A DNA stretch of 64,000 nucleotides, from contig CAWDOD010000011.1 of assembly GCA_963803805.1 (NCBI GenBank), positions 128,001-192,000 of the forward strand, read 5' to 3'. The stretch comes from an uncultured cyanobacterium. GTDB lineage: Bacteria; Cyanobacteriota; Cyanobacteriia; Cyanobacteriales; CAWCAG01. Below, piece by piece: positions 2 through 31,054 of the stretch (positions are counted from its first letter, which is position 1; every line of letters begins with the position of its first letter). Both the position numbers and the translations under genes were made by a program. The notes beneath the pieces are model-generated. The model did not search any database. It worked only from the letters and a program-made list of their open reading frames with translations, and was not told the DNA's origin.

Positions 2-736
2 CCCGTTAATCAAGAGGGGGAAGGGGTGAGAACTATTGCTAGTTGTGGTCAGTTGGTTTGCGAAACTCAAGTAGCTATTGTTAATCCTGATACGAAGAAG
101 CGCTGCGCCCCCGATGAGGTGGGGGAAATTTGGGTATCTGACAAGAGTGTTACCCAAGGTTATTGGGAACGCCCAGAGGCGACAGCAGAAAATTTTAATG
201 CTTACATTGCTGATAGCAACGAAGGGCCCTTTTTAAGGACGGGGGATTTAGGTTTTCTCCAAGAAGGGGAACTTTATATTAACGGTCGTATTAAAGATTT
301 AATTATTATCCACGGCACAAACCATTATCCCCAGGATATTGAGTGGACGGTACAACAACTACATCCCGAACTTCGCCCTGATTATGGTGCAGCCTTTTCT
401 ATCTTGGTGAGGGGGGAAGAAAAATTAGTGGTTGTTCAAGAAATAGAACGTCGTGCCAAAGAAATTGACCCCGAAGCAATGTTACCGGAAATTAAGCAAG
501 CGATCGCCGAAGAACATGAATTGCAAGTTCATGCTTTGGTGTTAGCAAAACCAGGAAACATTCTTAAAACCTCTAGCGGCAAAATCCAACGCCGCGCCTG
601 CAAAGCAAGTTTTTTGGCAGGGGAACTGGGAGTTATTGCTGACTGGAGTGAAAATCCCCAAATTACCGCGAAATTTCGTGACCTCGAAGGAGAAGTAGAA
701 TCTTTAGCCGCTAGCTTGAAAACCACTAAATCCTAG
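2..736 (+). CDS. Fatty acyl-AMP ligase (FAAL), C-terminal part; gene starts before the window
   Basis: Frame is open from the window edge. Motifs GEIWV, RTGDLGF, GRIKDLIIIHGTNHYPQDIE and KTSSGKIQRRAC are typical of FAAL-type adenylation enzymes. Confidence 0.88.
   Translation, partial: PVNQEGEGVRTIASCGQLVCETQVAIVNPDTKKRCAPDEVGEIWVSDKSVTQGYWERPEATAENFNAYIADSNEGPFLRTGDLGFLQEGELYINGRIKDLIIIHGTNHYPQDIEWTVQQLHPELRPDYGAAFSILVRGEEKLVVVQEIERRAKEIDPEAMLPEIKQAIAEEHELQVHALVLAKPGNILKTSSGKIQRRACKASFLAGELGVIADWSENPQITAKFRDLEGEVESLAASLKTTKS
500..507. repeat. HIP1 octamer GCGATCGC (representative; many copies across the window)
   Basis: Also at 1047, 5390, 6920 and many other sites. Highly iterated palindrome typical of cyanobacteria. 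Confidence 0.9.
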
Positions 737-767
737 TAGAAACATTCCGTCGGAACGTCTCTACTAG
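733..767. repeat. REP-like palindromic element between FAAL and ACAD
   Basis: ctagtagaaacattccgtcggaacgtctctactag is an imperfect palindrome of the GTAGAGACGTT...AACGTCTCTAC type. Confidence 0.65.
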
Positions 768-785
768 AAAAAGGAGAATATATTA

Positions 786-2594
786 ATGCATCCCTTAAAA
801 CAATATTGGGTCGCAGAAACCTTAGAAAAAGACTTAGGCGCACCCTCAAACCCTAACAGTAAAGTTTCTTGGCAACGTACTGCTGAGTTGGACGAAAAAG
901 AAGAGTTTCCCCAAGCAGAAATTGACTGGCTTTATAACCAGAAGTTGCAACATTACTACATTCCTAGTGAATGTGGCGGTGAATTCACCAACTTTGAAGA
1001 ATTTGTCGCTTTTGTGCGAGTTCTTTCTCGCCGGGATCAAAACGTAGCGATCGCCTTTACCACCATGTTTTGGTCTTATTTATGCTGGATGGCAGGAACC
1101 CCAGAACAGAAAAAGAAACTGGCTAGTCTCATGAAAGATGAGAACGAAACCATGTGTCTGGCTTATTCAGAAAAGGAACATGGTAGCGACTTAGTAGGGG
1201 GAGAAACCACAGCTACAAAGGTTCCTGGCGGTTACTTACTCAACGGGGAAAAATGGCCCATTAACCGCGCCACCCGTTCCGGTACAACTTTTGTAATTGC
1301 CCAAACCGACCCAGAAGGGGGAAGCAGAAGCCTTTCTCTATTCATGGTGGATAAGCGGGAATTAGACAAGTCTCAATATTACAACCTACCCAAAATTCCC
1401 TGCCACGGTATCAAAGCCGCAGATATGAGTGGTATTGGTTTCACAGATTGTTTCATCCCGGAGAGTACCCTGTTAGGGGAAGAAGGGCAAGGTTTAGAAT
1501 TAGGTCTAAAAGGCTTCCAAATCACCCGTACCCTCTGTGCTGCCTTTTCCCAAGGGGCCGCAGATACCACAGTGCGTACCACCTTGAAACTTGCTTTAAA
1601 TAGAATAGTTTATGGTAAAACAGTCTTTGACCTCCCTTTCCCCCGCCGCATCTTAGTAAACGCTTTCCTCGATATATTAATTTGCGATTGCGAAGTAATT
1701 GCCTCAGCTAGAGGTTTCAGTATCATTCCCCAACAATTTAGTGTTTGGGCTTCGGTGGTTAAATATTTCGTTCCCATTACCTTAGAAAATATGATTAACG
1801 GCCTTTCTTCGGTATTAGGGGCGCGTTTCTATTTTCGGGATGAACACGACTCTGGAGTTTTCCAAAAAATGCTCCGGGATAACTCTATTATTAGCATTTT
1901 TGATGGTAGTGGCTTGGTTAACCTCCATGCCTTAATTTTACAATTTCGTCAAATTGCTAAACACCGTAGCCGCCTTAACGAAAAGAAGAAACAAGCCTTG
2001 GCATCCCGTCTGGAGAAAATCTTCACCCTTAACCAAGAAGTTCCCCACTTTGACGGCAGCAAACTAGAAATTTTTGGTCGTGGTGCAGATGATGCCATGC
2101 AGGGTTTAGAACTATCCCTGGCTAAGTTAAAGGAGTTGAAAAATAATCCTGATGTTAGCCAACAGGTACTTAAGTATATCCTCCAACTGAGCAATAAACT
2201 AAGTGCAGAAGTCAACCAGATGCACGAAAATTTTGCTAACTCAAGCTTTGAATTTGGTCATGATCAAACTCCGGAGTCCTTTGAATTAGCCAAAAAGTAC
2301 TGTGCTTTACACGCTGCTAGTTGTTGCATCCATATGTGGGTTTATAACCGCACCAACTTAGAACCATTCTTTGCCCAAGGAGAATGGTTAGTTTTAGCCC
2401 TTAACAAGCTACTAAAACCCTATCATCCTAACGAAGAGTTGATTTTGCCGGATTATGGAGAAAACTTAGCTCAAGAACTAGTTAAACTTTATAACCAAGA
2501 CAAACTCTTTTCCATTGTTCCTTTCCAATTAGCACAAACCCAATCTCAGGAGAATAAAAAAGATGCAAGTTCAGAACTACAACTCCAAGCCTAG
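786..2594 (+). CDS. Acyl-CoA/acyl-ACP dehydrogenase
   Basis: CLAYSEKEHGSDL, LNGEKWPINRA, GEEGQGLE and SIFDGS motifs of the ACAD family. Lies between FAAL and ACP. AAGGAG RBS upstream. Confidence 0.9.
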   Translation: MHPLKQYWVAETLEKDLGAPSNPNSKVSWQRTAELDEKEEFPQAEIDWLYNQKLQHYYIPSECGGEFTNFEEFVAFVRVLSRRDQNVAIAFTTMFWSYLCWMAGTPEQKKKLASLMKDENETMCLAYSEKEHGSDLVGGETTATKVPGGYLLNGEKWPINRATRSGTTFVIAQTDPEGGSRSLSLFMVDKRELDKSQYYNLPKIPCHGIKAADMSGIGFTDCFIPESTLLGEEGQGLELGLKGFQITRTLCAAFSQGAADTTVRTTLKLALNRIVYGKTVFDLPFPRRILVNAFLDILICDCEVIASARGFSIIPQQFSVWASVVKYFVPITLENMINGLSSVLGARFYFRDEHDSGVFQKMLRDNSIISIFDGSGLVNLHALILQFRQIAKHRSRLNEKKKQALASRLEKIFTLNQEVPHFDGSKLEIFGRGADDAMQGLELSLAKLKELKNNPDVSQQVLKYILQLSNKLSAEVNQMHENFANSSFEFGHDQTPESFELAKKYCALHAASCCIHMWVYNRTNLEPFFAQGEWLVLALNKLLKPYHPNEELILPDYGENLAQELVKLYNQDKLFSIVPFQLAQTQSQENKKDASSELQLQA

Positions 2595-2880
2595 TGAACA
2601 AGCTACAGGGGAGAATTCCCCCACAGAAGCGATTCAAAGCTGGTTAGTGGCGCAATTAGCCGAGGAATTATCCTTAGACCCCAACTCTATTAAAGTTAGC
2701 GAACCCTTGACCCGTTATGGTTTAGACTCAATTGATGCTGTAACTTTGGTGGGTGATTTAGAAGACTGGTTAGATTTAGAGTTACCTTCTACTTTATTCT
2801 GGGATCACCCCACGATCGAAAAATCTGCCCAGTTTCTCGTTTCTGAGTTTGATGTGGCAGAAGCGTTGGAAGAGGCCTAA
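2563..2880 (+). CDS. Acyl carrier protein (stand-alone, pathway-dedicated)
   Basis: YGLDSIDAV phosphopantetheine-Ser motif and LFWDHPTI. Overlaps the ACAD stop region. Confidence 0.92.
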   Translation: MQVQNYNSKPSEQATGENSPTEAIQSWLVAQLAEELSLDPNSIKVSEPLTRYGLDSIDAVTLVGDLEDWLDLELPSTLFWDHPTIEKSAQFLVSEFDVAEALEEA

Positions 2881-2992
2881 GTTATCTCATCTAAGTTATG
2901 CCCTTTTGGGGAGATGGGGAGATGGGGAAACAAGATAATATCTTTTGCCCTTTACCCTTTATCTGTAAAACCCTGTTCCCCCTTCCTTCTAA

Positions 2993-3029
2993 CCACTAGC
3001 CACTAGCCACTAGCCATTAGCAATTAGCA
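2993..3029. repeat. Heptamer tandem repeat (CCACTAG/CCATTAG), STRR-like
   Basis: ccactagccactagccactagccattagcaattagca. Related runs at 5444-5488, 6815-6850 and about 45022-45043. Confidence 0.8.
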
Positions 3030-3039
3030 TCAAAATAAA

Positions 3040-4515
3040 TTGAACTTTTCAGACTTTTCATTTTGGTGGGTGCTGCTACTCTACAGCATTCCGTTTTTAA
3101 TCATTCGCACTATTGGCAAGTCCATTAACCGTTGGTTGCCGGAATTTGACCGCATTGGTTTAATGGTCTTGTCTTTGACGTTGTTTTTAAATGCTTCTTT
3201 TAAAAGCTTCGCTGTCTTCCTGTTTGAGATTATTTTTAATTACTTAATGGTGCGGTTAATGCTGCGCCAAAAAGGAACTTCAGCCAAACTGTTGGCCACT
3301 TTGGTGATTGTTTTTGATATTGCTATTTTGGCTTATTTTAAATATTTAACTTTTTTTGTTGAAGATGTAATCGGTTTAGGCATACCTGGTGGCATCTCAG
3401 AAAATTGGCAAGCAGGCTTTCCTTTACCCGTATTTAATCAAATTCCCCCTGGAGTTTCCTTCTATACCTTCCAAATGGTATCTTTTGTGGTGGAATCCCT
3501 GAAGCAAACCAAAAGGAAACGCCAGCCTAAACCCATTGCTTTTATTGATTACGTTAACTTTGTGGCCTTTTTTCCTCAAATTGTTGCTGGTCCTATTGAA
3601 CGGCGTTCAGATTTATTTCCCCAACTCCAAAAATTTGAATTTCAATTTAAGGCAGATAATATTGAAGCGGGACTGCGTTGGTTTTCCCTAGGACTATTTA
3701 TGAAAATGGTTCTGGCGGATAATCTTTTCCCTTTCATTGATATAGAACAAGCAACCAATCCTTGGTTAGTGTGGTTGTATGCTTTCCTCTTTACCCTGAG
3801 AATTTACTTTGATTTTGCCGGTTATAGTTTCATGGCTTTGGGTATTGCTAGGACTATGGGGGTACAACTAACTATCAACTTTCTCTCTCCCTATACTTCC
3901 ACCAGTATTCAAGAATTTTGGCGACGGTGGCATATCACCTTAAGTACTTGGTTTCGGGATTATGTCTTTATTCCTTTGATGGGGACTAACAAAAAGTGGG
4001 CCACTTCCTATCTTTTCATAACCTTCACCCTGTCTGGTTTCTGGCACGGTGCAGCTTGGAATTTTATTATTTGGGGAGCATACCACGGGGCTTTATTGCT
4101 TCTGTTGCGTTATGCTGGGCGGCCTTTCCAACGCTTGGTGGGGCAACCTGGCGGAGGTTCGCAGTTTTTCTCTTGGGCTTTAACTTTTGGGTCAGTAATT
4201 TTGGGTTGCTTATTCTTTATGGAAACGAATATTAGCCGCTTAGTTACCAAACTACAAACTATTATTAATCCCACAGCTTATTCCTGGGGTAACTTAACTG
4301 GGGCTTTTAGCGATTTTACCGTTAATGAAATAGCTGCTCTTAGTTTAACCTTGGGGCTAAGTTTGGGTTGGTTACTAATTGAACATATTGAAGTTTGGCA
4401 AAAACGCCCCGAATACGAACTACTCCGAAACCCTTGGGTATCCCCTTTGCTGCTAGGTTTAACCTTTTTATTAGCAGCTAATCAACCTTCTGAATTTATT
4501 TACTTTGAATTCTAA
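3040..4515 (+). CDS. MBOAT family O-acyltransferase (AlgI/DltB-like)
   Basis: GVSFYTFQ, FFPQIVAGPIER, IYFDFAGYS, EFWRRWHITLSTWFRDY and catalytic GFWHGA motifs. C-terminal FIYFEF. TTG start. Confidence 0.95.
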   Translation: MNFSDFSFWWVLLLYSIPFLIIRTIGKSINRWLPEFDRIGLMVLSLTLFLNASFKSFAVFLFEIIFNYLMVRLMLRQKGTSAKLLATLVIVFDIAILAYFKYLTFFVEDVIGLGIPGGISENWQAGFPLPVFNQIPPGVSFYTFQMVSFVVESLKQTKRKRQPKPIAFIDYVNFVAFFPQIVAGPIERRSDLFPQLQKFEFQFKADNIEAGLRWFSLGLFMKMVLADNLFPFIDIEQATNPWLVWLYAFLFTLRIYFDFAGYSFMALGIARTMGVQLTINFLSPYTSTSIQEFWRRWHITLSTWFRDYVFIPLMGTNKKWATSYLFITFTLSGFWHGAAWNFIIWGAYHGALLLLLRYAGRPFQRLVGQPGGGSQFFSWALTFGSVILGCLFFMETNISRLVTKLQTIINPTAYSWGNLTGAFSDFTVNEIAALSLTLGLSLGWLLIEHIEVWQKRPEYELLRNPWVSPLLLGLTFLLAANQPSEFIYFEF

Positions 4516-5444
4516 TGTCGAAACCTTTAAACCTACTGAAATGGTTCGCTGCGGCTGGTTTAGCTTGGGGTCTTGGTTGCGTTTATAACGTTTACTATGG
4601 CGGCGAGTTAAGTTGGTTGCGGATTATGTATCAAGAGAAAGTCGCCTTAGCCAAAAAGATCGAAGCCCCAAGAAGATTAATTATTACCGGGGGTTCAGGG
4701 GCCCATTACACAATTAATTCTGAGTTGTTGGAAAAAGAGTTAGGCATACCTGTAATTAACCTGGGTATAGATGGTCCTGTGGGATTAGATGTAATTCTAC
4801 CCAGTGTTCTTAAGCAAGTGCAACCAGGGGATGTCGTCCTATTAATTCCTGAATATTTAGTTCTCCTCGATGAAGATGGTTTAGGGGAACGTTCCGGCCC
4901 TTTTGTTTTGGCTACCGGACAGGTTGGTATAGGAGATATTCCCCCGAAACAGTTGGCCCAGGATATTTGGATGTTAGGCATTCCTAGCTTAAGGGCCTTG
5001 ACAAAATCAACTTTTGACCTCTTCCAAGAAGGTAGATTGACAGGTTACTATTCTGACCCCATTACCGAACGAGGAGATCCCACAGTAATTAAAGAAAGGA
5101 CAGGGGAATGGTGGAAATTAAAAATTCAAGACCCCATCTCACCCCACTCTGTTAAACGCATCAAAAAGTTTCGCGAAGAATTAGAAGCTAAGGAGGCAAA
5201 TTTAGTTATTTCTTTGCCTTGGGTTTATGCGGAAAAAGACAAAAATACTCTCAAAAATGTCAAAAAAACTGCCCAAGAAATGGAGAAAATTGCCCCTCTA
5301 ATTTATGATCCCAAAAATTACAATATCCAAAGCGATTCGGATCTCTTCGCCGACACCCACTACCATCTCAAATTAGATTCCATGAAAATGCGATCGCGCC
5401 AAATTGCTGAAGAAATTGAACCGATTTTGGAAGAATTAGAGTGA
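4515..5444 (+). CDS. Membrane-anchored DltD/SGNH-like protein (MBOAT partner)
   Basis: N-terminal TM, IITGGSGAHY (putative nucleophile Ser), NLG block and C-terminal FADTHYHL. Translationally coupled to the MBOAT (TAATG overlap). Confidence 0.6.
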   Translation: MSKPLNLLKWFAAAGLAWGLGCVYNVYYGGELSWLRIMYQEKVALAKKIEAPRRLIITGGSGAHYTINSELLEKELGIPVINLGIDGPVGLDVILPSVLKQVQPGDVVLLIPEYLVLLDEDGLGERSGPFVLATGQVGIGDIPPKQLAQDIWMLGIPSLRALTKSTFDLFQEGRLTGYYSDPITERGDPTVIKERTGEWWKLKIQDPISPHSVKRIKKFREELEAKEANLVISLPWVYAEKDKNTLKNVKKTAQEMEKIAPLIYDPKNYNIQSDSDLFADTHYHLKLDSMKMRSRQIAEEIEPILEELE

Positions 5445-5571: not shown

Positions 5572-6771
5572 ATGTCAGATCAAACCAATCTTCCTAATAC
5601 AACAACTCCTATCAAAATCTGCATCCTGGGAGGTGGTTTTGGTGGGCTTTATACGGCTTTATATTTGCAGTCTTTTAAAGGGATTAATTCTTCTCGCTAT
5701 CAAGTTACGTTAGTTGATCAAAATGACCATCTTCTCTTTACTCCCTTGCTTTATGAAGTGATTACTGATGAGTTACAAACTTGGGAAATTGCCCCTACTT
5801 ATAAAAAGTTGTTGAATCATACAAAGGTAAGAATTATTCAGGATCGAGTTGTTGCTTTAGATTTAGAAAGTCGTTCAGTAAAACTACAACAAGGACAACT
5901 TACCTATGATTATTTAGTTCTTGCTTTAGGGAATAAGAATCGTTTTGCAGGAGTTCCGGGGGCGAAAGAACATAGTTTAACTTTCCGTAGCTTAAAAGAT
6001 ACTTTACGTTTGAAAGAAAGGCTTGGGGAATTGGCAAAATCGGCAAGGGAAACTATTCATGTAGTAATTATTGGTGGTGGCCCGAGTGGAGTAGAATTAG
6101 GGACAAAAATAGCTGACTTTTTGGGTAGAAGGGGAGAGATACGCTTAATAGAAAGGGGGACTCAAATTCTCAAAGCTTATACCCCAGCAACCCAACGTAG
6201 CGGTAAGGAAGCTTTGGAAAAAAGAGGAGTGAGGATAAGTTTTGAAACTAGTGTTGAGAGGGTTGAACCGGATCAAGTTACTTTAATCCAAAAAGGAGAA
6301 ACTTTTGCTATTCCGGTAGATTTAGTGTTGTGGAGTGCAGGTACAAAAACTCAGGAATTAATTGCTAATTTAACTTGCCAACATAATGAACAAGGACAAG
6401 TAATTACTTTACCTACTCTACAAATCCCCGAATATCCTGAAGTACTTGCTTTAGGAGATTTAGCAGAAGTTAAAAACCCTAATGGTAAATTAGTCCCCGC
6501 AACGGCACAAGCCGCTTATCAACAAGCAAGTCAAGCAGCTAAAAATTTGAGGGCTAGTTTGGCAAATAAACCTTTAAAACGCTTTCGTTATTTGCATTTA
6601 GGAGAAATGATTACTTTAGGGGTTAATGATGCAGCAGTTTCAAGTTTCGGTATCAATTTAAAAGGTTCCCTAGCTGCTTTGGTAAGAAGAATTGTTTATC
6701 TTCAACGCTTACCAACTTTTTCTCATCGTTGGAAAGTTCTTAAGGGCTGGTTGGGGCTAAGTAATAAGTAA
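5572..6771 (+). CDS. Type II NAD(P)H:quinone oxidoreductase, NdbB-like flavoprotein
   Basis: ICILGGGFGGLYTAL, PLLYE...QTWEIAP, second Rossmann GGGPSGVE, ALGD and PATAQAAYQQA motifs. Confidence 0.88.
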   Translation: MSDQTNLPNTTTPIKICILGGGFGGLYTALYLQSFKGINSSRYQVTLVDQNDHLLFTPLLYEVITDELQTWEIAPTYKKLLNHTKVRIIQDRVVALDLESRSVKLQQGQLTYDYLVLALGNKNRFAGVPGAKEHSLTFRSLKDTLRLKERLGELAKSARETIHVVIIGGGPSGVELGTKIADFLGRRGEIRLIERGTQILKAYTPATQRSGKEALEKRGVRISFETSVERVEPDQVTLIQKGETFAIPVDLVLWSAGTKTQELIANLTCQHNEQGQVITLPTLQIPEYPEVLALGDLAEVKNPNGKLVPATAQAAYQQASQAAKNLRASLANKPLKRFRYLHLGEMITLGVNDAAVSSFGINLKGSLAALVRRIVYLQRLPTFSHRWKVLKGWLGLSNK

Positions 6772-8805: not shown

Positions 8806-10293
8806 ATGCTTTTCAATTCCTACGTTTTCATCTTCATCTTCCTACCCATAACCTTAATTGGCTTTTTTAGCTTAACAAGGTTTAAATTTACCAAATTAGC
8901 AACAGTTTGGTTAACAGTTAGTTCCTTTATTTTCTACGGTTATTGGAACCCTCTCTACCTACCTTTACTCATTCTTTCTGTTGTCTTTAACCATCAAATG
9001 GGGGCGCAAATTGGTAAACTTATTGCCCAAAATAATCAGAAGCAGGCAAAGGTATTTCTTTGGGTAGGAATCATCATCAACTTATTAAGTATTGGCTATT
9101 ATAAATATGCCAATTTCTTCTTCACTTCCCTTAATGATACTTTTGGTAGCAATTTCACTATTTACCGGATAATTTTACCTTTAGGTATATCCTTCTATAC
9201 TTTTACCCAGATTGCCTATCTTGTTGATGCCTATCGAGGAGAAACCGATAAATTAAACTATGACCTTTTAACCTATAGTTTATTTGTTTCTTTTTTCCCT
9301 CAACTAATTGCAGGACCAATTCTGCGCCACGATGAACTTATTCCCCAATTCCGTAAATTAAAAAACTTCGTTTTTTCTCATAAAAACTTTGCTCTAGGTT
9401 TAGTCTTATTTAGTTTAGGGTTATGTAAAAAAGTTCTCATAGCAGATAGTGTTTCTCCTTGGGTAGCTGATATTTTTGCAAATGCTACTGAGGTTAACTT
9501 TATAGAAGCCTGGGTGGGTGCATTAAGTTATACCTTACAACTTTATTTTGATTTCTCCGGCTACTCTGATATGGCTATTGGTTTAGGATTGATGTTTAAT
9601 ATCAACTTACCAATTAACTTTAATTCTCCTTACAAAGCGACTTCTATTAGTGATTTTTGGCGACGGTGGCATATTACTTTATCTAATTTTTTGAGGGACT
9701 ATCTCTACATTCCTTTAGGAGGAAGTCGCAAAGGGGAAATACGTCGCTACTCTAATTTGATTACCACTATGTTATTAGGAGGATTGTGGCATGGTGCAGG
9801 TTGGCCTTTTGTTATTTGGGGAGGTATTCATGGACTTTATTTATCTATCAACCATGCTTGGCGCAAATATGCCTTTCCTTTACCAAAAATAGTTGCTTGG
9901 TTTATAACTTTTACAAGTGTGGTTTTTAGTTGGGTACTATTTCGTGCTGTCACTTTAAGAGATGGCATAGAGATATTAACAGCGATGGTTGGCTTGAAAG
10001 GTATAGTTGTTCCTGGAGAAGCGACGGGTAAATTAGGTTTTCTAACGAATTTTGGTATTCAACTACAGTCATGGAATAATATTACCTACCTACCAGAAAC
10101 TAACGATAGCAAAATCATCACCTTAGCAGTTCTTTTGGGATTAGTACTAGCGGTTGCTTTATTACCAAATACGCAACAAATTCTCCAAAAGCTAAAACCT
10201 ACTTGGTGGTGGGCTGTTAGCATTGGTTTGTTAACTAGCTATTGTTTACTATCCCTTAACCGTGTTTCTGAGTTCCTTTATTTCCAATTTTAA
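8806..10293 (+). CDS. MBOAT family O-acyltransferase (AlgI-like)
   Basis: MLFNSY start, LPLGISFYTF, FFPQLIAGPI, LYFDFSGYSDMAIG, DFWRRWHITLS and GLWHGA motifs. C-terminal FLYFQF. Confidence 0.95.
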   Translation: MLFNSYVFIFIFLPITLIGFFSLTRFKFTKLATVWLTVSSFIFYGYWNPLYLPLLILSVVFNHQMGAQIGKLIAQNNQKQAKVFLWVGIIINLLSIGYYKYANFFFTSLNDTFGSNFTIYRIILPLGISFYTFTQIAYLVDAYRGETDKLNYDLLTYSLFVSFFPQLIAGPILRHDELIPQFRKLKNFVFSHKNFALGLVLFSLGLCKKVLIADSVSPWVADIFANATEVNFIEAWVGALSYTLQLYFDFSGYSDMAIGLGLMFNINLPINFNSPYKATSISDFWRRWHITLSNFLRDYLYIPLGGSRKGEIRRYSNLITTMLLGGLWHGAGWPFVIWGGIHGLYLSINHAWRKYAFPLPKIVAWFITFTSVVFSWVLFRAVTLRDGIEILTAMVGLKGIVVPGEATGKLGFLTNFGIQLQSWNNITYLPETNDSKIITLAVLLGLVLAVALLPNTQQILQKLKPTWWWAVSIGLLTSYCLLSLNRVSEFLYFQF

Positions 10294-10320
10294 ATCCGTT
10301 GCCTAATGAAGTAATGAATA

Positions 10321-11517
10321 ATGAAAACTTTCCCTGAAAAACCCGAGGTTGCTAAAACCAAAAAGATAAAACAGCGTCGAAAGAAACAGTATCGACATTT
10401 TACTCTTTTCCTTTTAGTTATTATTTTTCTACCAACTCTTACTGTTGGCCTATTTAATTGGCGGATTGATCCCTATGGCATTTTTAATAGTCCAGAAATT
10501 AAAGGTTTTAATCAAGCCAAACCAGAGAAGCTTAAAAATACAAGATTATTTAAAGCTGTGGCAATTACTAATCTCAAACCTATTACTATATTCCTTGGTT
10601 CTTCTCGCACAGACTACGGTTTAGAACCCAACCATCCTGCTTTAAAACAACCAGCTTATAATTTAGGTTTAGGGGCAGCAAGTCCCTACGAACTTCTCGC
10701 TTATTTAAAACACGCTATCTATAACCAAGAAAATATTGAACAAATTGTAATTGGTTTAGATGAGTTTATGTTTAATGCTAACAATGAAGCTAGCCCAGAT
10801 TTTTCCGAAGCCCGTTTAGAAACCAAAAATATTACTCTTCTTGATACTATCAACACCACATTTTCTCTAGATGCAATTGCGGCGAGTCAAGAAACTATTG
10901 AAGCTAGCAAAACTAATCCTAATTATGTTACCCATAGCCCAAAAGGTCAGTTACAGCTAAGATTGATTGATCGTGATAAATCGGCAACAGATTACCGCTT
11001 TAATACGAGTATTGGTTTTTATTTCAAGTCCTTTCCGCAAGATTATCAATTATCTCAAAAGCACTTGGATAACCTGAAAAAGATTGTCAAATTAGCCAAA
11101 GAAAATGATATAGCTATTAAAGCTTTCATTTCTCCTGCCCATGCCACTCGCTATGAAACAATTCGCGTTGCGGGGCATTGGCAAGAATACGAAGAAATGA
11201 AGCGACAATTAGTGAAGATTTTGCCAGTTTGGGATTTTTCTGGTTATAACAGTATCACCATAGAACCGATTAGCGAAGAGATTAAAAATTATATTGATGA
11301 TTCCCATTATCAAGAAGAAGTTGGTAATTTAGTTCTCAATCGTCTATTCAACTATGAAGTAGAAAAAGTACCAGAAGATTTTGGTGTTCTCGTTACATCC
11401 CAAAATATAGAATCCCATTTAGCTAAGATTCGTTCTCAACAAGCAATTTGGGAAGAGAATAATCCTGAAGAAGTAGAAATGGTGAAAGAGATTCAAAATA
11501 ACCTTGCTAATCGCTAA
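10321..11517 (+). CDS. Membrane-anchored SGNH-like protein (MBOAT partner)
   Basis: TM followed by IDPYG, then FLGSSR, YNLG, GLD, FISPAH, WDFSGYN and DDSH (DxxH). Confidence 0.65.
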   Translation: MKTFPEKPEVAKTKKIKQRRKKQYRHFTLFLLVIIFLPTLTVGLFNWRIDPYGIFNSPEIKGFNQAKPEKLKNTRLFKAVAITNLKPITIFLGSSRTDYGLEPNHPALKQPAYNLGLGAASPYELLAYLKHAIYNQENIEQIVIGLDEFMFNANNEASPDFSEARLETKNITLLDTINTTFSLDAIAASQETIEASKTNPNYVTHSPKGQLQLRLIDRDKSATDYRFNTSIGFYFKSFPQDYQLSQKHLDNLKKIVKLAKENDIAIKAFISPAHATRYETIRVAGHWQEYEEMKRQLVKILPVWDFSGYNSITIEPISEEIKNYIDDSHYQEEVGNLVLNRLFNYEVEKVPEDFGVLVTSQNIESHLAKIRSQQAIWEENNPEEVEMVKEIQNNLANR

Positions 11518-11635: not shown

Positions 11636-12901
11636 GTGGTTTTTATATTTGTTAGTCAACAGGGATATATAATAACTAATCAACAAACCTCAAACCTTGT
11701 CAACTTGCTTCTACCTTCCCCTTCAGGTTCTTTCCAAATCAATCTTGTCTCTACTTCTAAAAAGAAACTTTCCCTAATTTTACCTACCTATAATGAAAGC
11801 AAAAATCTTCAGTTCGTTATTTCCCAGCTAATTAGTTTATTAGACAGTAAGTTACCAGAAAACTACGAACTCATTGTCGTTGACGATGATAGCCCTGACA
11901 AAACCTGGAAAATTGCTCAATCTTTGCTGCCGAAATATTCTCAACTCAAAGTAATTCGCCGTCAGGGAGAAAAGGGACTTTCTACTGCGGTAATTCGTGG
12001 TTGGCAAGCATCCCAAGGAGACATATTGGGGGTTATAGATGCTGATTTACAACATCCCCCAGAGATCCTGGTTTCGATGGTAAACACTATTGAAGAAGGA
12101 AGAGATTTAGTAATTGCTAGTCGCCATATAGAAGGAGGAGGTGTCAGCGACTGGAGTTTTGGGAGAAGATTTTTGTCTCGCGGCGCACAAACCATTGGCT
12201 TAGTAATTTTACCAGAAGTTGTTGGTAAAGTATCTGATCCCATGAGTGGCTATTTTTTGGTGAAGAGAGAGGCGATCGCTCAGCAAAAATTAAACCCGCG
12301 AGGTTATAAGATTCTCATTGAAGTGTTAGCCCGTTGCCATATTAGTAAAATAGCTGAAGTAGGCTATATTTTTCAAGAACGTCAAGCAGGTGAGAGTAAA
12401 GTAACCTACCAACAATATTTAGACTACCTCGTACATTTAATTGTTTTACGCCTCTATTTATGGCAAGTTAATCGCTTTATACGCTTCGGTTTAGTGGGTT
12501 TAACTGGTGTATTTGTAGATATGAGTATACTTTACCTATTAAGCGATCCTCACACCTTAGCTTGGGGGCTAACTCGTAGCAAAATTATTGCTGGGGAAGT
12601 AGCAATTATCAACAATTTCTTGTGGAATGATGCTTGGACATTTGCAGATATTGCTATCAAACAAATAGGTTGGCAACAACGTTTGAAACGCCTCTTGAAA
12701 TTCAACCTGATTTGCTTGCTAGGCTTATTTCTTAATGTCGTAATCCTCAACCTCTTATTCAACTACTTAGGTTTCAACAACTTCTCGACTGGCAGATATA
12801 TAGCTAACCTCATAGCAATAGCTATCGTTACTGGGTGGAATTTTTGGCTTAATCTTAAATTGAGTTGGCGAGTAACCCAGGTAAATAGCAAGAAAACTTA
12901 G
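11636..12901 (+). CDS. Polyprenol-phosphate glycosyltransferase (DPM1-like GT2) fused to a GtrA domain
   Basis: ILPTYNE, VVDDDSPDKT, IDADLQHPP and DPMSGYF motifs. C-terminal GtrA (RFGLVGLTG...NFLWN...WNFWLN). Start codon uncertain. Confidence 0.9.
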   Translation: MVFIFVSQQGYIITNQQTSNLVNLLLPSPSGSFQINLVSTSKKKLSLILPTYNESKNLQFVISQLISLLDSKLPENYELIVVDDDSPDKTWKIAQSLLPKYSQLKVIRRQGEKGLSTAVIRGWQASQGDILGVIDADLQHPPEILVSMVNTIEEGRDLVIASRHIEGGGVSDWSFGRRFLSRGAQTIGLVILPEVVGKVSDPMSGYFLVKREAIAQQKLNPRGYKILIEVLARCHISKIAEVGYIFQERQAGESKVTYQQYLDYLVHLIVLRLYLWQVNRFIRFGLVGLTGVFVDMSILYLLSDPHTLAWGLTRSKIIAGEVAIINNFLWNDAWTFADIAIKQIGWQQRLKRLLKFNLICLLGLFLNVVILNLLFNYLGFNNFSTGRYIANLIAIAIVTGWNFWLNLKLSWRVTQVNSKKT

Positions 12902-13044
12902 CTAGAGAGGAACTCTAAAAGTAAATCAAACGATCACAATTTCATCATAAAATATGAACTGCCAACCATACACAAATTACGAAAATGACGATAAACAAAA
13001 TTTTGCATTGTATATCTAACTTTCTCTACTTTCAGTTTTAAGCA

Positions 13045-14215
13045 ATGAAAAAAACTTTTCGCCAATATCGTCAATATAGTCTAATTTTTTTCACTAGTGT
13101 TTGCATCCCTCTATTTGGTGTAGGTTTATTTAATATTATTATTAATCCCTACGATGTATTTAGCTCTTCTGATATTCCTGGTATTAATCACGCTAAAGTC
13201 AATCAAGATAATAATGATAGGCTATCAAAAGCCACAGATATTACTCGTATTAAACCCATAACTATATTATTAGGTTCTTCTCGTACTAAACAAGGTTTAA
13301 ATCCGAGATCATCCTCAAATAGCAAAGCAGAAACCGACTTATAACTTGGCAATTAATGGCCCCAATATGTATGAGGTTAAACGCTACTTAGAACACGCTA
13401 TTGCTAATCAAGAAAACTTACAAACAGTCGTCCTTGGTGTGGACTTTTTTATGTTCAACGCCAATCTAGCAAATCAGCCTGGCTTTTCAGAAGCCAGATT
13501 AGGTAAACGCCATCTCATTGTGCAAGATTTTATTAATATTGTCTTTTCTATAGATGCTTTTAATGCTAGCAAAGAAACATTATTAGAAAGTAGAAAAGAA
13601 GCATATAAAAATGACAATTATGGAGAAAATGGCTTTCAACCCAATCGCAAAGCTGATGATGGCGAAACAAAATGGCGATTTGAACAATCTATCAAGCTTT
13701 ATTTTGAGTTACATTCTGATTATGATTTTTCCTCAGCATATTTTGCGAGTTTCCAAGAAGCAGTTAAGCTTTGTCAAGAAAATAACATTGATTTAAAAGT
13801 TTTCATTTCTCCAGCCCATGCTACCCAGTGGGAAGCTATTAGAACAACAGGACATTGGCAAGTATTTGAGGAGTGGAAAAAGAAATTGGTTGCAGTTGCG
13901 CCAGTGTGGGATTTTTCTGGTTATAACTCAATTACGACAGAACATATCAAAGCTAAAATGAATAATTATTCTGATAACTCTCACTATAACAAAGCCATTG
14001 GAGATTTAATATTAAATCGTATTTTGAGCTATCAAGAAACAGAAGTACCTGAAGACTTTGGTGTCTTATTAACCTCCGAAAATATTGATTCTCACTTAGA
14101 AAAAATTCGTACCGATAGGGAAAATTGGGTAAAGAATAATCCAGAAGAATTCAAATTGGTACAAAGAATTAAACACCAACAAGAAGCGGCAGAAAATCCT
14201 CAAAGAGATAAGTAA
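13045..14215 (+). pseudogene. SGNH-like paralog of 10321..11517, split by a 1-nt insertion at about 13306
   Basis: GSSRTKQGLNP (first ORF) continues as DHPQIAKQKPTYNLAING in the next frame, matching paralog GSSRTDYGLEPNHPALKQPAYNLG. FISPAHAT, WDFSGYNSIT and DNSH are retained. Confidence 0.8.
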
Positions 14216-16417: not shown

Positions 16418-17476
16418 ATGAACAAACCTGTCATTATTTGTATAGATGACGAACCTACCGTACTTGAAAGTCTCAAAATAGAGCTAAAAAAAGCTCTAGG
16501 GGATGCTTATATAATCGAAGCCACAGAAGGGGGAGAAGAAGCTTTAGAACTGTTTAAAGAACTAATGGAAGATGAATATGAAGTAGCCTTAGTTCTATCT
16601 GATTATATTATGCCCGATATCAAAGGAGACGAACTTTTAAAACGTATTCATACCATTTCTCCCCAAACCCTGAAAATCATGCTTACAGGGCAAGCTGACT
16701 TAGAAGCAGTAAGTAATGCTATTAAGTATGCAAAGCTATACCGTTATATTGCTAAACCTTGGCAACCTGAAGATTTAAAAATTACCGTTTTAGAAGCAGT
16801 TCATAGCTATCTTCAAGATAAAAAACTCACTGAACAAAATACTAAGCTGCAACAAATGAACCAGCAGTTAGAAGAACTAAACCTTCATCAAGCAGCTTTA
16901 ATTAGGGAACGTACCTCTGAATTAGAGAAAGCCAATCAAGAATTACATCGCCTCGCTAATCTAGACGGTTTAACCAAAATAGCCAACCGCCGCTGTTTCG
17001 ATCAATATCTTACTCAAGAATGGCAAAGATTAGCTAAAATGCAACAACCTTTATCAATTATTTTTGCTGATATAGATTCTTTTAAAAGCTACAATGATCA
17101 ATACGGGCATCAAGCAGGGGATGACTGTCTGCGGGCTGTTTCCCAAGCCATGAGTTCTACACTCACTAAAGGTTTAGTGGCGCGGTATGGAGGAGAAGAA
17201 TTTGCCTTCGTCTTACCTAATACAGAAACCACAGAAGCTGTGCAAACGGCGATCGCCATTCAATCAGCCATCCAACAACTAAAAATTGCCCATCAACCTT
17301 CAACTGCTGTAAAGGAATATTTAACCCTAAGTTTAGGTATTGCCACAACTATCCCTCAACAGGAATGCTTGCCATCAACCCTAACCACTCAAGCAGATAT
17401 TGCTCTTTACAAAGCAAAAAAACAAGGTCGTAATAGATACTGTATTAACAAAGCAGGATCATCACAGGAAGCATGA
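16418..17476 (+). CDS. Response-regulator diguanylate cyclase (REC-coiled coil-GGEEF)
   Basis: IDDE, SDYIMP and KPW receiver motifs. DGLT..ANRR, DIDSFK.YND.YGH..GD and RYGGEEF. Confidence 0.95.
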   Translation: MNKPVIICIDDEPTVLESLKIELKKALGDAYIIEATEGGEEALELFKELMEDEYEVALVLSDYIMPDIKGDELLKRIHTISPQTLKIMLTGQADLEAVSNAIKYAKLYRYIAKPWQPEDLKITVLEAVHSYLQDKKLTEQNTKLQQMNQQLEELNLHQAALIRERTSELEKANQELHRLANLDGLTKIANRRCFDQYLTQEWQRLAKMQQPLSIIFADIDSFKSYNDQYGHQAGDDCLRAVSQAMSSTLTKGLVARYGGEEFAFVLPNTETTEAVQTAIAIQSAIQQLKIAHQPSTAVKEYLTLSLGIATTIPQQECLPSTLTTQADIALYKAKKQGRNRYCINKAGSSQEA

Positions 17477-30671: not shown

Positions 30672-31054
30672 AACCGCCCCTTCTCCCTTTAAGAGCAAAT
30701 AGTTTGCTGAATATCGAGTTTTTTTAGTGACCGTAGTAAAACGATAAGATGATTTACGTTCTTTAGTTGACCTTAAGCCTAACTATTTATCAGCTTAGAT
30801 TCAATTACTCATGGCAGAAATTTCTCATAACTGACCATTTTAAATTATTATTTCGCCCAGAAGTAATTATGGTAGTATTGATGGGATTATTCACTCTCAA
30901 GTATAAATTACCTGCAATCTGGGGTTAGCTTAAATCTCCTGACCACCGAAGTAATTCAAGAGACTTTGATAACAATAAGGTTATTGAAACTTCTAAGTAA
31001 CAGCTTTACCCCATCTCAGGTGTTGCTAATACTCAAGGTTCGAGTTTAAGAAAA

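Follow-up and report, generated by a model that had tools for sequence, protein, structure and literature searches.

Does a cyanobacterial gene block that pairs a fatty acid activation module with an MBOAT and its partner encode a route by which a fatty-type acyl group leaves the cytoplasm? The question is raised by the start of a 64,000-nt stretch of DNA (the window), for which a first-pass annotation had claimed five co-oriented genes: a FAAL, an acyl dehydrogenase, a dedicated ACP, an MBOAT (MBOAT1) and a partner protein (PART1). All five were recovered on the plus strand in the claimed places (Table 1). We give a probability of roughly 55% to the reading in which the conserved block, comprising these genes, the HTTM/DCC1-like gene and usually the NDH-2-like gene, encodes an acyl relay that crosses the membrane and is fed by a carrier protein.

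Table 1. Genes of the conserved block and the neighbouring second MBOAT pair in the 64,000-nt window
Feature	Position	Strand	Evidence
FAAL C-terminus, 244 aa	2..736	+	AMP-binding and AMP-dom_DIP2-like domains; NCBIfam FAAL models
ACAD-fold flavoenzyme, 602 aa	786..2594	+	three ACAD domains (Pfam)
ACP, 105 aa, PP-binding carrier with GLDS	2563..2880	+	PP-binding 59.4 bits
MBOAT1, 491 aa, with GFWHGA	3040..4515	+	Pfam MBOAT 103.9 bits
PART1, 309 aa, with GGS and DTHYH	4515..5444	+	start/stop overlap with MBOAT1; family conservation
NDH-2-like flavoprotein	5572..6771	+	Pyr_redox_2; two GxGxxG motifs
HTTM/DCC1-like polytopic membrane protein, 628 aa	6858..8744	+	DCC1-like 37.5 bits; HTTM 26.5 bits
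Second pair, MBOAT2 and PART2 (398-aa, DUF1574-like)	8806..11517	+	domain scan

The FAAL gene is truncated by the window edge, and its 5′ part lies beyond the window. The ACP reading frame starts 32 nt before the ACAD stop and overlaps it, and the ATG of PART1 overlaps the MBOAT1 stop as TAATG. The block had earlier been taken to end at position 5444; its conserved part runs on through the NDH-2-like and HTTM/DCC1-like genes, whose products belong, in our assessment, to the same system as the relay genes.

Linkage was surveyed in 80 loci with PART1 orthologues (55–66% identity). MBOAT1 lies directly upstream of PART1 in 57 of 75 assessable loci, and the ACP, ACAD and FAAL genes stand alongside PART1 in 52/73, 50/70 and 49/69 loci, respectively. 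Once MBOAT1 is present, the association is closer still, with the ACP gene found in 51 of 54 loci, ACAD in 51 of 53 and FAAL in 49 of 52; the ACP gene sits immediately upstream of MBOAT1 in 51/54 loci, spanning at least 10 families. The arrangement is beyond chance: orthologous loci from at least 10 named families of cyanobacteria share the block, and the gene 5′ of FAAL, which served as a control, varies (21 families across 36 loci, the commonest being an Sfp-type phosphopantetheinyl transferase with 6 loci). The proposed linkage of the MBOAT pair to the FAAL triad was thus borne out by synteny. Downstream of PART1, the NDH-2-like gene is found in 50/77 loci and the HTTM/DCC1-like gene in 63/68, including loci without MBOAT1. 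The latter is the closest-linked neighbour of PART1, tighter than MBOAT1, which the relay model leaves unexplained. MBOAT2 (21/59 loci) and PART2 (19/59) are frequent companions without being core members. The earlier observation that no PKS/NRPS follows downstream also stood: no such domains were detected among the ORFs scanned in the 64-kb window, nor by a Pfam scan 5′ of FAAL in 9 orthologous loci. The conserved block contains no other acyltransferase, ketosynthase, condensation domain or thioesterase able to consume an acyl-ACP.

The cytoplasmic components point to a fatty-type substrate. The top NCBIfam models for the FAAL C-terminus are PRK12476 (180 bits), PRK05850 (177 bits) and FadD32 (169 bits), and full-length orthologues, which are standalone proteins of 604–631 aa, score 458/448 bits with PRK05850 (fatty-acid--AMP ligase) versus 302/296 with the best fatty-acid--CoA ligase model. 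To our knowledge, FAALs make no CoA esters. The ACP carries its phosphopantetheine serine, Ser56 (2728–2730), in the motif GLDS within the segment LTRYGLDSID, invariant in 29/29 sequences; in NCBIfam it is matched best by the model for the N-terminal ACP of Pks13 (E 5e-12), a domain that is loaded by a FAAL. The ACAD domains occupy residues 31–378 of the flavoenzyme, which extends about 220 aa beyond them at its C-terminus. Its 693 homologues at E<=1e-30 carry cyanobacterial names among the matches listed. In the alignment with its best PDB match, Bcd 5ol2 (E 2.4e-25), IFDGS of the enzyme faces IYEGT of Bcd, and Asp373 (1902–1904) stands at the position of the catalytic Glu of ACADs, as does Asp in 54/54 cases. 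Because Asp replaces the catalytic Glu, dehydrogenase activity of this enzyme is not assured. It also falls short of an MbtN equivalog, scoring 18.8 bits where the cut-off is 700, and the first-pass statement that the locus desaturates its substrate has to be toned down to a suggestion.

In MBOAT1, the catalytic His336 of GFWHGA (4045–4047) aligns with that of DltB (6bug, E 1.9e-25), and the acyl-shuttle hexapeptide FIYFEF (4495–4512) ends the protein; FIYF[ED]F, a fused FXYXXF motif, is the extreme C-terminus in 58/58 MBOAT1 orthologues, and FLYFQF is the tail of MBOAT2 in 23/23. A role of FXYXXF in acyl shuttling is known for PatA and DltX, as far as the accessible text of PMC12148441 goes. 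The catalytic His together with the shuttle Tyr motif supports the reading of extracytoplasmic transfer. The label ‘Dlt-like’, taken strictly, did not hold for this MBOAT. Identity with DltB was rejected on score (182.6 bits versus a cut-off of 375 for the DltB model), true dltB genes rank last among its 184 plasmid matches, and the fused motif replaces the DltX microprotein. In the tree, MBOAT1 forms its own subfamily, distant from DltB and apart from MBOAT2 and other MBOATs, and MBOAT2 clusters with generic non-Dlt MBOATs.

PART1 consists of a conserved N-terminal hydrophobic helix and a domain of about 280 aa. Its earlier designation as membrane-anchored needs qualifying, since the hydrophobicity of the N-terminal segment is only moderate (best 19-residue Kyte–Doolittle mean 1.33); this segment is nevertheless strongly conserved (W18, G21, N25). 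Among 241 family members, Ser61 (4695–4697 in the window) and Asp106 are present in 241, His284 (5364–5366) in 240 and Asp280 (5352–5354) in 228, with Asp280 and His284 spaced as DxxxH versus the classical DxxH. Sequence searches of Pfam, NCBIfam and PDB gave no match for PART1, and none of the DltD, AlgJ and SGNH models scored above threshold. Profile comparison with hhalign gave 20% probability for DltD and 47–66% for a DUF1574-like family, the latter below the level proving homology; the weak link to DUF1574/LB_356 appeared in both profile and language-model comparison. The family is large (2266 representatives at E<=1e-3) and follows MBOATs in other phyla too, one member (E 6e-48) lying 3′ of an MBOAT gene within a plasmid-borne glycan cluster of Pseudomonas. 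PART1 is a candidate SGNH-like acyl-transferase.

The relay that we propose would begin with the adenylation of a fatty-type acid by FAAL and its loading onto the dedicated ACP, as family membership suggests. The ACP-bound chain would be modified by the ACAD-like flavoenzyme, most simply by alpha,beta-dehydrogenation. The acyl-phosphopantetheine arm would enter MBOAT1 from the cytoplasmic side, and the acyl group would then move from the catalytic His to the tail Tyr within FIYFEF at the outer face; the residues for this step are present in MBOAT1, and its mechanism is borrowed from PatA and DltB/DltX. Finally, PART1, held by its N-terminal helix, may take the acyl group on Ser61 and deliver it to an acceptor outside the cytoplasm, probably a glycan or glycolipid of the envelope. 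The earlier Dlt-like fatty-acylation reading thus survives in its conserved five-gene unit and in the lack of a competing acyl-ACP consumer in the block, but not in strict Dlt identity or in the certainty of desaturation.

The alternative that survives best, though we hold it to be rather unlikely, splits the block into two modules. MBOAT1 and PART1 would be an ordinary pair, comparable to PatA/PatB or AlgI/AlgJ, that O-acylates an envelope glycan from acyl-CoA (e.g., acetyl-CoA), and the triad would make a separate lipid or metabolite for an enzyme encoded elsewhere, the genes being kept together since they serve the same envelope structure. Several findings weigh in its favour and against the relay. 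The fused tail of MBOAT1 is of the type found in MBOATs thought to be acyl-CoA-dependent; non-Dlt MBOAT/SGNH pathways are described, in the available part of PMC12148441, as acyl-CoA users without a carrier protein. All 8 non-Dlt plasmid neighbourhoods inspected hold an MBOAT with an F[IL]YFxF end followed by a partner gene, with no ACP or adenylase nearby, and a generic MBOAT2–PART2 pair lies in the window itself. MBOAT1 is not beside PART1 in 18/75 loci, and two loci (L007 and L054) hold MBOAT1–PART1 without the triad within 8.5 kb. In Crocosphaera, Rippkaea and Hydrococcus, PART1 stands apart from the triad. On the side of the relay, the MBOAT1 of L007 and L054 nests inside the MBOAT1 subfamily, and the named organisms with a split block still carry an ACAD orthologue (at least 63% identity), which in three of them is on a contig differing in length from that of PART1. 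Against two modules stand the position of the ACP gene immediately 5′ of MBOAT1 amid changing flanks, the distinctness of the MBOAT1 subfamily from MBOAT2 and generic MBOATs, and the lack in the block of another enzyme to remove the acyl group from the ACP. A standalone FAAL–ACP pair without a nearby consumer would be unusual among FAAL pathways.

It is improbable, in our estimate, that MBOAT1 instead works inside the membrane, acylating a lipid or a polyprenyl-linked acceptor from acyl-ACP like eukaryotic lipid MBOATs, with PART1 editing or releasing the product as an esterase or lipase and not serving as the final transferase. FAAL-type activation suggests a long chain, and we know of long-chain MBOAT substrates only from lipid- or protein-acylating MBOATs. 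GT2–GtrA genes nearby, and LA_3751/LA_3752-family putative glycosyltransferases in other loci, point to polyprenyl-phosphate-sugar chemistry, and the triad spacing of PART1 is atypical for SGNH transferases. Nevertheless, the Tyr motif invariant at the C-terminus of MBOAT1 has to date been associated with passing the acyl group on to a partner outside the cytoplasm (PMC12148441, in the portion available), and both the MBOAT1/PART1 start/stop overlap and the conserved partner helix fit the relay.

The tight linkage of the HTTM/DCC1-like gene to PART1, also without MBOAT1, and the NDH-2-like gene between them in 50/77 loci could be read as signs of a different centre of the system. The DCC1-like domain, with its CxxC (Cys314/Cys317), is found in 30/30 orthologues; the protein of the window also has a conserved domain of some 200 aa at its C-terminus. 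The acyl group from MBOAT1/PART1 would then be the substrate of a quinol-dependent carboxylase or oxygenase like the vitamin-K-dependent carboxylases, the NDH-2-like protein regenerating the quinol and the DCC1 CxxC regenerating the quinone from the epoxide; precedents are bacterial HTTM+DCC1-like proteins whose likeness to human GGCX shows in predicted complexes, and MloH, named as a vitamin-K-dependent carboxylase of bacteria whose substrate is a biosynthetic intermediate (available text of bioRxiv 10.64898/2026.08.19.745780). We consider this quite unlikely: the HTTM score is just under the Pfam cut-off of 27.7 bits, HTTM was detected in 6/30 orthologues (E<=1e-3), no PDB chain was matched by sequence or profile, the solved GGCX included, catalytic residues could not be mapped, and gene order is the sole tie between this enzyme and the acyl group.

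Comparison with known systems places the proposed relay between several of them. The bacterial HTTM+DCC1-like proteins share the domain order HTTM to DCC1-like with the block protein, whose HTTM score is below the cut-off; the partner of the bacterial proteins is DUF5819, not an MBOAT partner, in the portion of bioRxiv 10.64898/2026.08.19.745780 available. The DUF1574/LB_356 partners of Leptospira-type MBOATs are, like PART1, encoded directly 3′ of the MBOAT and have an N-terminal helix, a hydrophobic strand and then G-[GST]-S, but their similarity to PART1 stops short of proving homology. MbtM/MbtN/MbtL of mycobactin synthesis, a precedent for dehydrogenating an ACP-bound fatty acyl chain, unite the same three enzyme types (FAAL, acyl-ACP dehydrogenase and ACP) in one cluster. 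They are not orthologues: besides the MbtN score, a full-length FAAL orthologue reaches 202 bits with MbtM against a cut-off of 621, the ACAD of the block is a 602-aa protein with Asp at the base position, and its product is proposed to go to an MBOAT, not to a siderophore-line acyltransferase. The O-acetylation pairs PatA/PatB, AlgI/AlgJ(X) and WssH/WssI resemble MBOAT1–PART1 in an MBOAT with extra C-terminal helices and an F[IL]YFxF end, followed by a partner of 300–400 aa. These pairs are reported to use acyl-CoA and no carrier protein (PMC12148441, as far as its accessible text goes), whereas FAAL–ACAD–ACP is fixed 5′ of MBOAT1 in 49–51 of 52–54 loci and the PART1 family is without a Pfam model. 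The Dlt system of teichoic acid D-alanylation (DltA, DltC, DltB, DltX, DltD) likewise has an adenylase and a dedicated carrier whose gene neighbours those of an MBOAT and a membrane-anchored partner, with the same expected acyl path from His to Tyr (FXYXXF) to Ser to acceptor. Unlike Dlt, the block has a FAAL in place of DltA, an additional ACAD-like enzyme, a non-DltB MBOAT with the Tyr motif fused to it in place of DltX, a partner without a DltD-model match and a Gram-negative-type cyanobacterial host. No published description of such a system was found in the literature. By analogy, its donor side, with an adenylase and a carrier protein, would be Dlt-like, and its membrane side, with a fused shuttle motif and no DltX, PatA/PatB- or AlgI/AlgJ-like; the conserved block suggests an undescribed route for a fatty-type acyl group to the cell exterior.

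The five genes named in the first-pass annotation, encoding a FAAL, an ACAD-like flavoenzyme and an ACP (the triad), an MBOAT (MBOAT1) and its partner protein (PART1), were all found in the window, in the same orientation and closely spaced. The accompanying statement that no PKS/NRPS lies downstream was upheld, with zero PKS/NRPS domains among the ORFs scanned across the 64-kb window. Predicted terminators and promoters within the block were fewer than in shuffled sequences, and none was located in an intergenic gap where it would divide the operon. Rfam and tRNA scans gave no matches, and the remainder of the window resembles an ordinary cyanobacterial chromosome.

Features of the gene block and its surroundings (window positions)
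Feature	Position	Strand	Remarks
FAAL, C-terminus (last 244 residues)	2-736		best NCBIfam matches: PRK12476 180 bits, PRK05850 177 bits, FadD32 169 bits
ACAD-like, 602 aa	786-2594		three ACAD domains in residues 31-378, then C-terminal extension
ACP, 105 aa	2563-2880		PP-binding, GLDS; ATG 32 nt ahead of ACAD stop
MBOAT1, 491 aa	3040-4515		GFWHGA
PART1, 309 aa	4515-5444		ATG and MBOAT1 stop share one base (TAATG)
NDH-2-like	5572-6771	+	
HTTM/DCC1-like, 628 aa	6858-8744	+	
MBOAT2 and PART2	8806-11517	+	second, generic MBOAT with DUF1574-like 398-aa partner
GT2 glycosyltransferase fused to GtrA-like transmembrane domain	11636-12901		PgfS 89 bits and ArnC-type 71 bits, neither reaching its cut-off
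Apparent remnant of a third pair of MBOAT and partner	12990-14215		
Two tandem paralogous response-regulator/GGDEF diguanylate cyclases	16418-17476, 18004-19062		immediately follow the envelope gene cluster
CheA-like hybrid kinase, 1028 aa, preceded by 795-aa Hpt-domain protein	25235-30698	-	kinase domains: H-kinase_dim, HATPase_c, CheW, two receiver domains
ORF, 346 aa	28657-29697	opposite to the kinase genes	no family match, probably spurious

A word-indexed search with PART1 gave 421 homologues (E<=0.001), and all named organisms among the 120 matches listed, which are 57–100% identical, are cyanobacterial. The exhaustive search against 50%-identity representatives returned 2266 sequences at E<=1e-3, 211 at E<=1e-10 and 31 at E<=1e-30. 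Genome contigs with 10-kb flanks were scanned with an alignment of 30 cyanobacterial PART1 orthologues (A2; every fourth of the first 120, n=29, plus one representative), as the alignment A1, comprising 61 of 270 proteins, was too diverse for that purpose. The locus set consists of the best 80 of 133 relatives, with PART1 identities of 55–66%, and does not include the window's own genome. Neighbours were counted by tblastn with the window proteins, and each denominator is the number of loci whose sequence extends far enough on the side in question.

MBOAT1 lies directly upstream of PART1 in 57 of 75 loci; ACP (52/73), ACAD (50/70) and FAAL (49/69) also occur upstream. On the downstream side the HTTM/DCC1-like gene is present in 63 of 68 loci and the NDH-2-like gene in 50 of 77, and the second pair was detected as MBOAT2 in 21/59 and PART2 in 19/59. 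Where MBOAT1 is present (57 loci, with the inverted L059 set aside), the upstream ACP was found in 51 of 54 loci, ACAD in 51 of 53 and FAAL in 49 of 52, so the linkage of the MBOAT pair to the FAAL triad, for which the first-pass annotation had called for a synteny search, is conserved. Among the misses, L019 was scored as lacking the ACP because the ACP there is split in two pieces, FAAL is missing from L064, and L007 and L054 are real exceptions with unrelated genes upstream of MBOAT1-PART1. The FAAL-bearing block occurs in Coleofasciculaceae, Xenococcaceae, Geitlerinemataceae, Microcoleaceae, Aerosakkonemataceae, Oscillatoriaceae, Nostocaceae, Leptolyngbyaceae and Cymatolegaceae, and is inverted in a Cyanothecaceae locus.

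Two further observations concern the integrity of the block. Around 1.8–2.8 kb of extra DNA separates ACP and MBOAT1 in L008, L064 and L076, which is the sole repeated interruption of the core block. In a locus from a Chloroflexaceae MAG (L078), PART1 is 59% identical to that of the window and MBOAT1 appears as two shorter ORFs, which suggests misbinning or, alternatively, recent acquisition from a cyanobacterium, the MBOAT being broken.

To control for inherited gene order, the closest upstream neighbour of FAAL (ORFs of 100 aa or more) was sought in 39 loci and found in all but three. These 36 neighbours represent 21 families (sizes 6, 4, 3, 3, 3 and 2, plus 15 singletons). The largest family (6/36; L018, L023, L045, L053, L070, L072) is an Sfp-type 4'-phosphopantetheinyl transferase, an enzyme also detected by Pfam in L017, and its position beside FAAL fits a dedicated carrier protein. 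The second-largest is the LA_3751/LA_3752-family putative glycosyltransferase, and one of the three-member families is a second FAAL. The first-pass annotation had considered a PKS/NRPS upstream as a possible consumer of the acyl-ACP; no ketosynthase, condensation or other PKS/NRPS domain was found in the nine loci in which the FAAL-upstream region was covered by the Pfam scan (95 ORFs from 19 of the 80 loci).

Of the 18 loci in which MBOAT1 does not adjoin PART1, most are of the Crocosphaera/Cyanothece type and some are Coleofasciculus MAGs; the HTTM/DCC1 gene still follows PART1 in them. The four that were scanned (L012, L037, L046, L051) have a divergent set of upstream genes, encoding a ten-helix protein of 607 aa, a DegT aminotransferase and a small WbuC-like cupin, with a GT2 additionally upstream in L012 and L051. 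The 607-aa protein of L012 (8124-9947, minus strand), encoded beside PART1, is a putative glycosyltransferase of the LA_3751/LA_3752 family (431 bits against a cut-off of 200), as is a polytopic protein at L014:2230-3864(+) (311 bits against the same cut-off). Members of this family are encoded directly upstream of FAAL in four Leptolyngbya-group loci; tblastn with the L012 and L014 proteins found no copy in the 64-kb window. A 600-aa ACAD of at least 63% identity is present in Crocosphaera sp. XPORK-15E, Crocosphaera sp. UHCC 0190, C. chwakensis, Rippkaea orientalis PCC 8801 and Hydrococcus rivularis NIES-593, and in XPORK-15E, UHCC 0190 and H. rivularis it is located on a contig whose length differs from that of the PART1 contig. 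Since the ACAD persists in these genomes, the block is split there rather than lost.

The catalytic His336 of MBOAT1 is invariant (33/33 sequences), and the Pfam MBOAT model scores 103.9 bits. In the PDB, MBOAT1 has relatives among DltB structures alone (E 1.9e-25), and its WHG aligns with their catalytic His region. Nevertheless, the description "Dlt-like MBOAT" in the first-pass annotation does not hold in the strict sense. MBOAT1 reaches 182.6 bits on the DltB equivalog model TIGR04091, below its cut-off of 375. Among the 184 plasmid records matched by MBOAT1, the annotated dltB genes are the weakest (E 1e-19 to 1e-28) and generic MBOATs give E 1e-45 to 1e-57. The C-terminus FIYFEF corresponds to the FXYXXF acyl-shuttle motif, and this motif stands at the extreme C-terminus as FIYF[ED]F in 58/58 MBOAT1 orthologues and as FLYFQF in 23/23 MBOAT2 orthologues. 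According to the available text of PMC12148441, the FXYXXF site resides in the microprotein DltX in Dlt and in two extra C-terminal MBOAT helices in other bacterial pathways, and in PatA the Tyr of this motif is auto-acetylated. The annotated plasmid records agree with that division: all eight non-Dlt MBOATs end in F[IL]YFxF, whereas in the two dlt operons DltB is without the motif (2/2) and DltX ends in FIYNEF (2/2).

In a quick maximum-likelihood tree of 93 sequences (59 MBOAT1, 24 MBOAT2, 8 other MBOATs and 2 DltB), DltB forms a very long separate branch (100% SH-aLRT) and all eight generic MBOATs cluster with MBOAT2 (99%). A single branch (support 73) separates the MBOAT1 rows, with L007 and L054 nested among them, from the rest, the deep order being unsure because of long branches. 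MBOAT1 and MBOAT2 share 35% identity. Judged by its sequence, MBOAT1 is a PatA/AlgI-type MBOAT with a fused shuttle, forming a subfamily of its own, and not DltB.

Full-length FAAL orthologues are standalone proteins of 604–631 aa. Two of them gave 458 and 448 bits on the FAAL model against 302 and 296 on fatty-acid--CoA ligase models and about 95–101 bits on DltA models. The ACAD-like enzyme matches Pfam Acyl-CoA_dh_N, _M and _1 above cut-off and 72 ACADs in the PDB (best E 2.4e-25); its catalytic core aligns throughout with butyryl-, medium-chain and short-chain acyl-CoA dehydrogenases, and its closest homologue, at 95% identity, comes from a Spirulinaceae MAG. The sequence IFDGS is placed opposite IYEGT of Bcd, MCAD and others, and the position equivalent to MCAD Glu376 holds Asp instead of the catalytic Glu in 54/54 sequences. 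An Asp serves at the ACAD catalytic-base position in nitroalkane oxidase, and in IVD and LCAD the catalytic base is located elsewhere. Desaturation by the ACAD-like enzyme would be the simplest interpretation. The comparison with the MbtM/N/L-type module made in the first-pass annotation stands in part: FAAL, ACAD and ACP are all present, but neither enzyme is the equivalog. Two full-length FAAL orthologues score 202 and 190 bits on the MbtM model NF004510 (cut-off 621) and the ACAD-like enzyme 18.8 bits on the MbtN model NF037942 (cut-off 700), and because these cut-offs are missed the comparison is an analogy only.

The ACP core LTRYGLDSID is invariant in 29/29 sequences (28 of 47 ORFs aligned), and in NCBIfam the ACP most closely matches the N-terminal ACP of Pks13 (E 5e-12). 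A C-terminal extension of about 30–45 residues, usually ending in G-W-G-G-[LF]-[WF]-like residues, is present in 17 of the 28 aligned ACP orthologues (alignment A4; L001, L002, L005 and 14 other loci) and absent from the window's ACP and from Leptolyngbya/Phormidesmis-type ACPs. It could be a membrane-seeking tail.

PART1 matched no Pfam or NCBIfam model and had no meaningful PDB relative in sequence and profile searches. The family motifs GGSGxH, NxGLxxGLG, GDxVxxxPEY and FxD[TS]xYH recur both in A1 and in a set of all 241 members of 285–360 aa. Within the latter, Ser61 and Asp106 are conserved in 241 sequences, Gly60 and His284 in 240, Glu113 and Asn82 in 239, Lys42 in 234 and Asp280 in 228. 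Conservation is also unusually high along the N-terminal helix (W18, G21, N25), which fits a specific contact in the membrane.

Several weak signals converge on an SGNH-like nature of PART1. Sub-threshold Pfam matches in the family were ALGX (3 of 95 distant members), Lipase_GDSL_2 (2/95 and 1/61) and Lipase_GDSL_3 (1/61), and three orthologues among the matches listed bear the UniRef label SGNH. Among the language-model neighbours of two homologues are clusters with DUF1574 or LB_356 in 11–18% of their members. Comparison of PART1 with the DUF1574-like PART2 family by hhalign gave probabilities of 20% with A1, 47% with the 241 sequences and 66% with an enlarged target; where the N-terminal block aligned, GGS stood opposite GSS. 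Additionally, the PART2 HMM matched two PART1-family members in the 270-sequence set (E 7.6e-6 and 1.6e-5).

As regards DltD, no match to PF04914 occurred among the 61 and 95 PART1-family members scanned. Against a 122-sequence DltD alignment hhalign gave a probability of 20% over the C-terminal 77 columns in local mode, the global mode being uninformative, and paired FxDTxYHL with FMxDTIHLGW. In a search of a 10-sequence set the PART1-family HMM matched B. cereus DltD (E 1.8e-5), and by eye only, four blocks of the two proteins look collinear. The Asp280-x-x-x-His284 spacing differs from the classical DxxH. Independent support for the family as an MBOAT partner comes from plasmids: in Pseudomonas asturiensis the protein encoded right after an MBOAT matches the PART1-family HMM (E 6e-48), its gene lying in a cluster that also encodes an ABC transporter, glycosyltransferases and a GT39 enzyme, and a Caballeronia plasmid has the same pairing. 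No ACP or adenylase was found near the MBOAT pairs of these two plasmids or in the other six non-Dlt neighbourhoods inspected.

The gene most tightly linked to PART1 encodes the 628-aa membrane protein, which the first-pass annotation had left out. It is DCC1-like in 30/30 orthologues, with an invariant CxxC (29 of 67 orthologues aligned); its HTTM domain scores 26.5 bits (cut-off 27.7) and is seen in 6/30 orthologues at E<=1e-3. Neither sequence nor profile searches gave a PDB match. The NDH-2-like flavoprotein usually sits between PART1 and this gene. Predicted complexes of bacterial HTTM+DCC1-like proteins resemble human gamma-glutamyl carboxylase, and MloH is cited as a bacterial vitamin-K-dependent carboxylase, in the available part of 10.64898/2026.08.19.745780. 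By analogy, a quinol-dependent modification step by the HTTM/DCC1-like protein is conceivable. Alternatively, the NDH-2-like protein could re-oxidize the ACAD-like flavoenzyme; ETF is not generally known from cyanobacteria. Two other ideas were dropped: that PART1 might be an HTTM-enzyme subunit resembling DUF5819, for which there was no Pfam match, and that HTTM might be placed in the AT3/TmAT acyltransferase clan, since HTTM is not listed in the accessible text of PMC12423673.

Further downstream, the GT2-GtrA protein resembles polyprenyl-phosphate sugar synthases, a hint of glycosylation chemistry in the periplasm alongside the proposed acyl relay. In the apparent relic of a third pair, a short frame ending ...SNFLYFQF just before 13040 is an MBOAT tail without its gene, and a PART2 paralogue from about 13042 matches the intact 403-aa protein of L030 in two frames, with a shift near 13290-13305 that reflects either a pseudogene or a sequencing error. 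The PART2 partner is sometimes tandemly duplicated (L001, L004, L011, L052).

The product of a FAAL has to pass to a carrier, and relatives of MBOAT1 take an acyl-phosphopantetheine thioester from CoA or DltC. The presence of a FAAL, a dedicated carrier and, in MBOAT1, one plausible thioester consumer in the block favours a carrier-protein-fed acyl relay, to which we give a probability of about 0.55. The FAAL product would be transferred to the dedicated ACP and from there to MBOAT1, and the gene order argues for the ACP as the likely MBOAT1 donor. The candidate acceptor suggested by several neighbouring genes is a glycan or glycolipid of the envelope; these genes are GT2-GtrA, the second MBOAT pair and two GGDEF regulators in the window, and DegT and LA_3751-family genes at other loci. 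The main alternative is that MBOAT1-PART1 works as an ordinary O-acylation pair fed by acyl-CoA and has only the neighbourhood and the target in common with the triad. The split loci, the relatives without an ACP and the generic motif of the tail speak for it; set against the FAAL, its dedicated carrier and the single plausible thioester consumer, we hold this to be unlikely. A pathway centred on the HTTM protein, despite its tight linkage to PART1, has a low probability, and acylation of a lipid within the membrane appears just as improbable.

The carrier-protein-fed relay may be extended to a complete undescribed extracytoplasmic machine, in which the FAAL/ACP-fed MBOAT would pass a modified, enoyl-type fatty acyl group via acyl-Tyr to a new Ser-His transferase family, and an HTTM/DCC1 enzyme related to vitamin-K-dependent carboxylases and driven by a dedicated NDH-2 quinone reductase would act on the acyl group or the acceptor. 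We regard this extended scheme as quite doubtful; if true, it would amount to a quinol-dependent cycle in bacteria with the cell envelope as its target.

MBOAT lipidation is so far known from the eukaryotic acylation of Wnt, Hedgehog and ghrelin. The FAAL points to a fatty group rather than acetyl or D-alanyl, and if the relay were confirmed, bacteria would be able to lipidate extracytoplasmic targets via an MBOAT. A function would be gained for a partner family of more than 2000 representative clusters without a Pfam model, and the roles of the ACAD-like enzyme and the HTTM/DCC1 proteins would become testable in cyanobacteria. Given its wide distribution (Nostocaceae, Leptolyngbyaceae, Coleofasciculaceae, Xenococcaceae, Microcoleaceae and further groups), the block could influence the properties of the sheath, EPS or outer membrane in cyanobacteria of ecological importance. 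A full-text literature search, with most subscription journals and supplements outside its coverage, found no publication describing this gene set; a lipocone paper from the Aravind lab (PMC12419801) mentions, in its available part, an MBOAT + SGNH operon in another context only.

The available text of PMC12148441 divides envelope acylation into the carrier-protein-fed Dlt pathway and the acyl-CoA-fed MBOAT-SGNH or AT3-SGNH pathways, and describes the non-Dlt MBOAT/SGNH pathways as operating without a carrier protein, to which the block would be an exception. Like Dlt, it encodes an adenylase and a carrier, although these are of the FAAL and PKS types and are functional analogues only. In Dlt the shuttle Tyr is carried by the separate DltX and DltB is without the motif, whereas here MBOAT1 itself carries FIYFEF; the Dlt partner is DltD (PF04914), whereas PART1 has no match to the DltD model. 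The PatA/PatB type combines the MBOAT catalytic His with the C-terminal FXYXXF hexapeptide, both found in MBOAT1, and has an adjoining partner with an SGNH fold and a Ser-His-Asp triad; PART1, a candidate SGNH-like protein, is encoded next to MBOAT1, overlaps its stop and keeps Ser61 (241/241) and His284 (240/241). The block would represent a third arrangement, in which a Dlt-like carrier donor is joined to a PatA-like fused Tyr shuttle and a FAAL.
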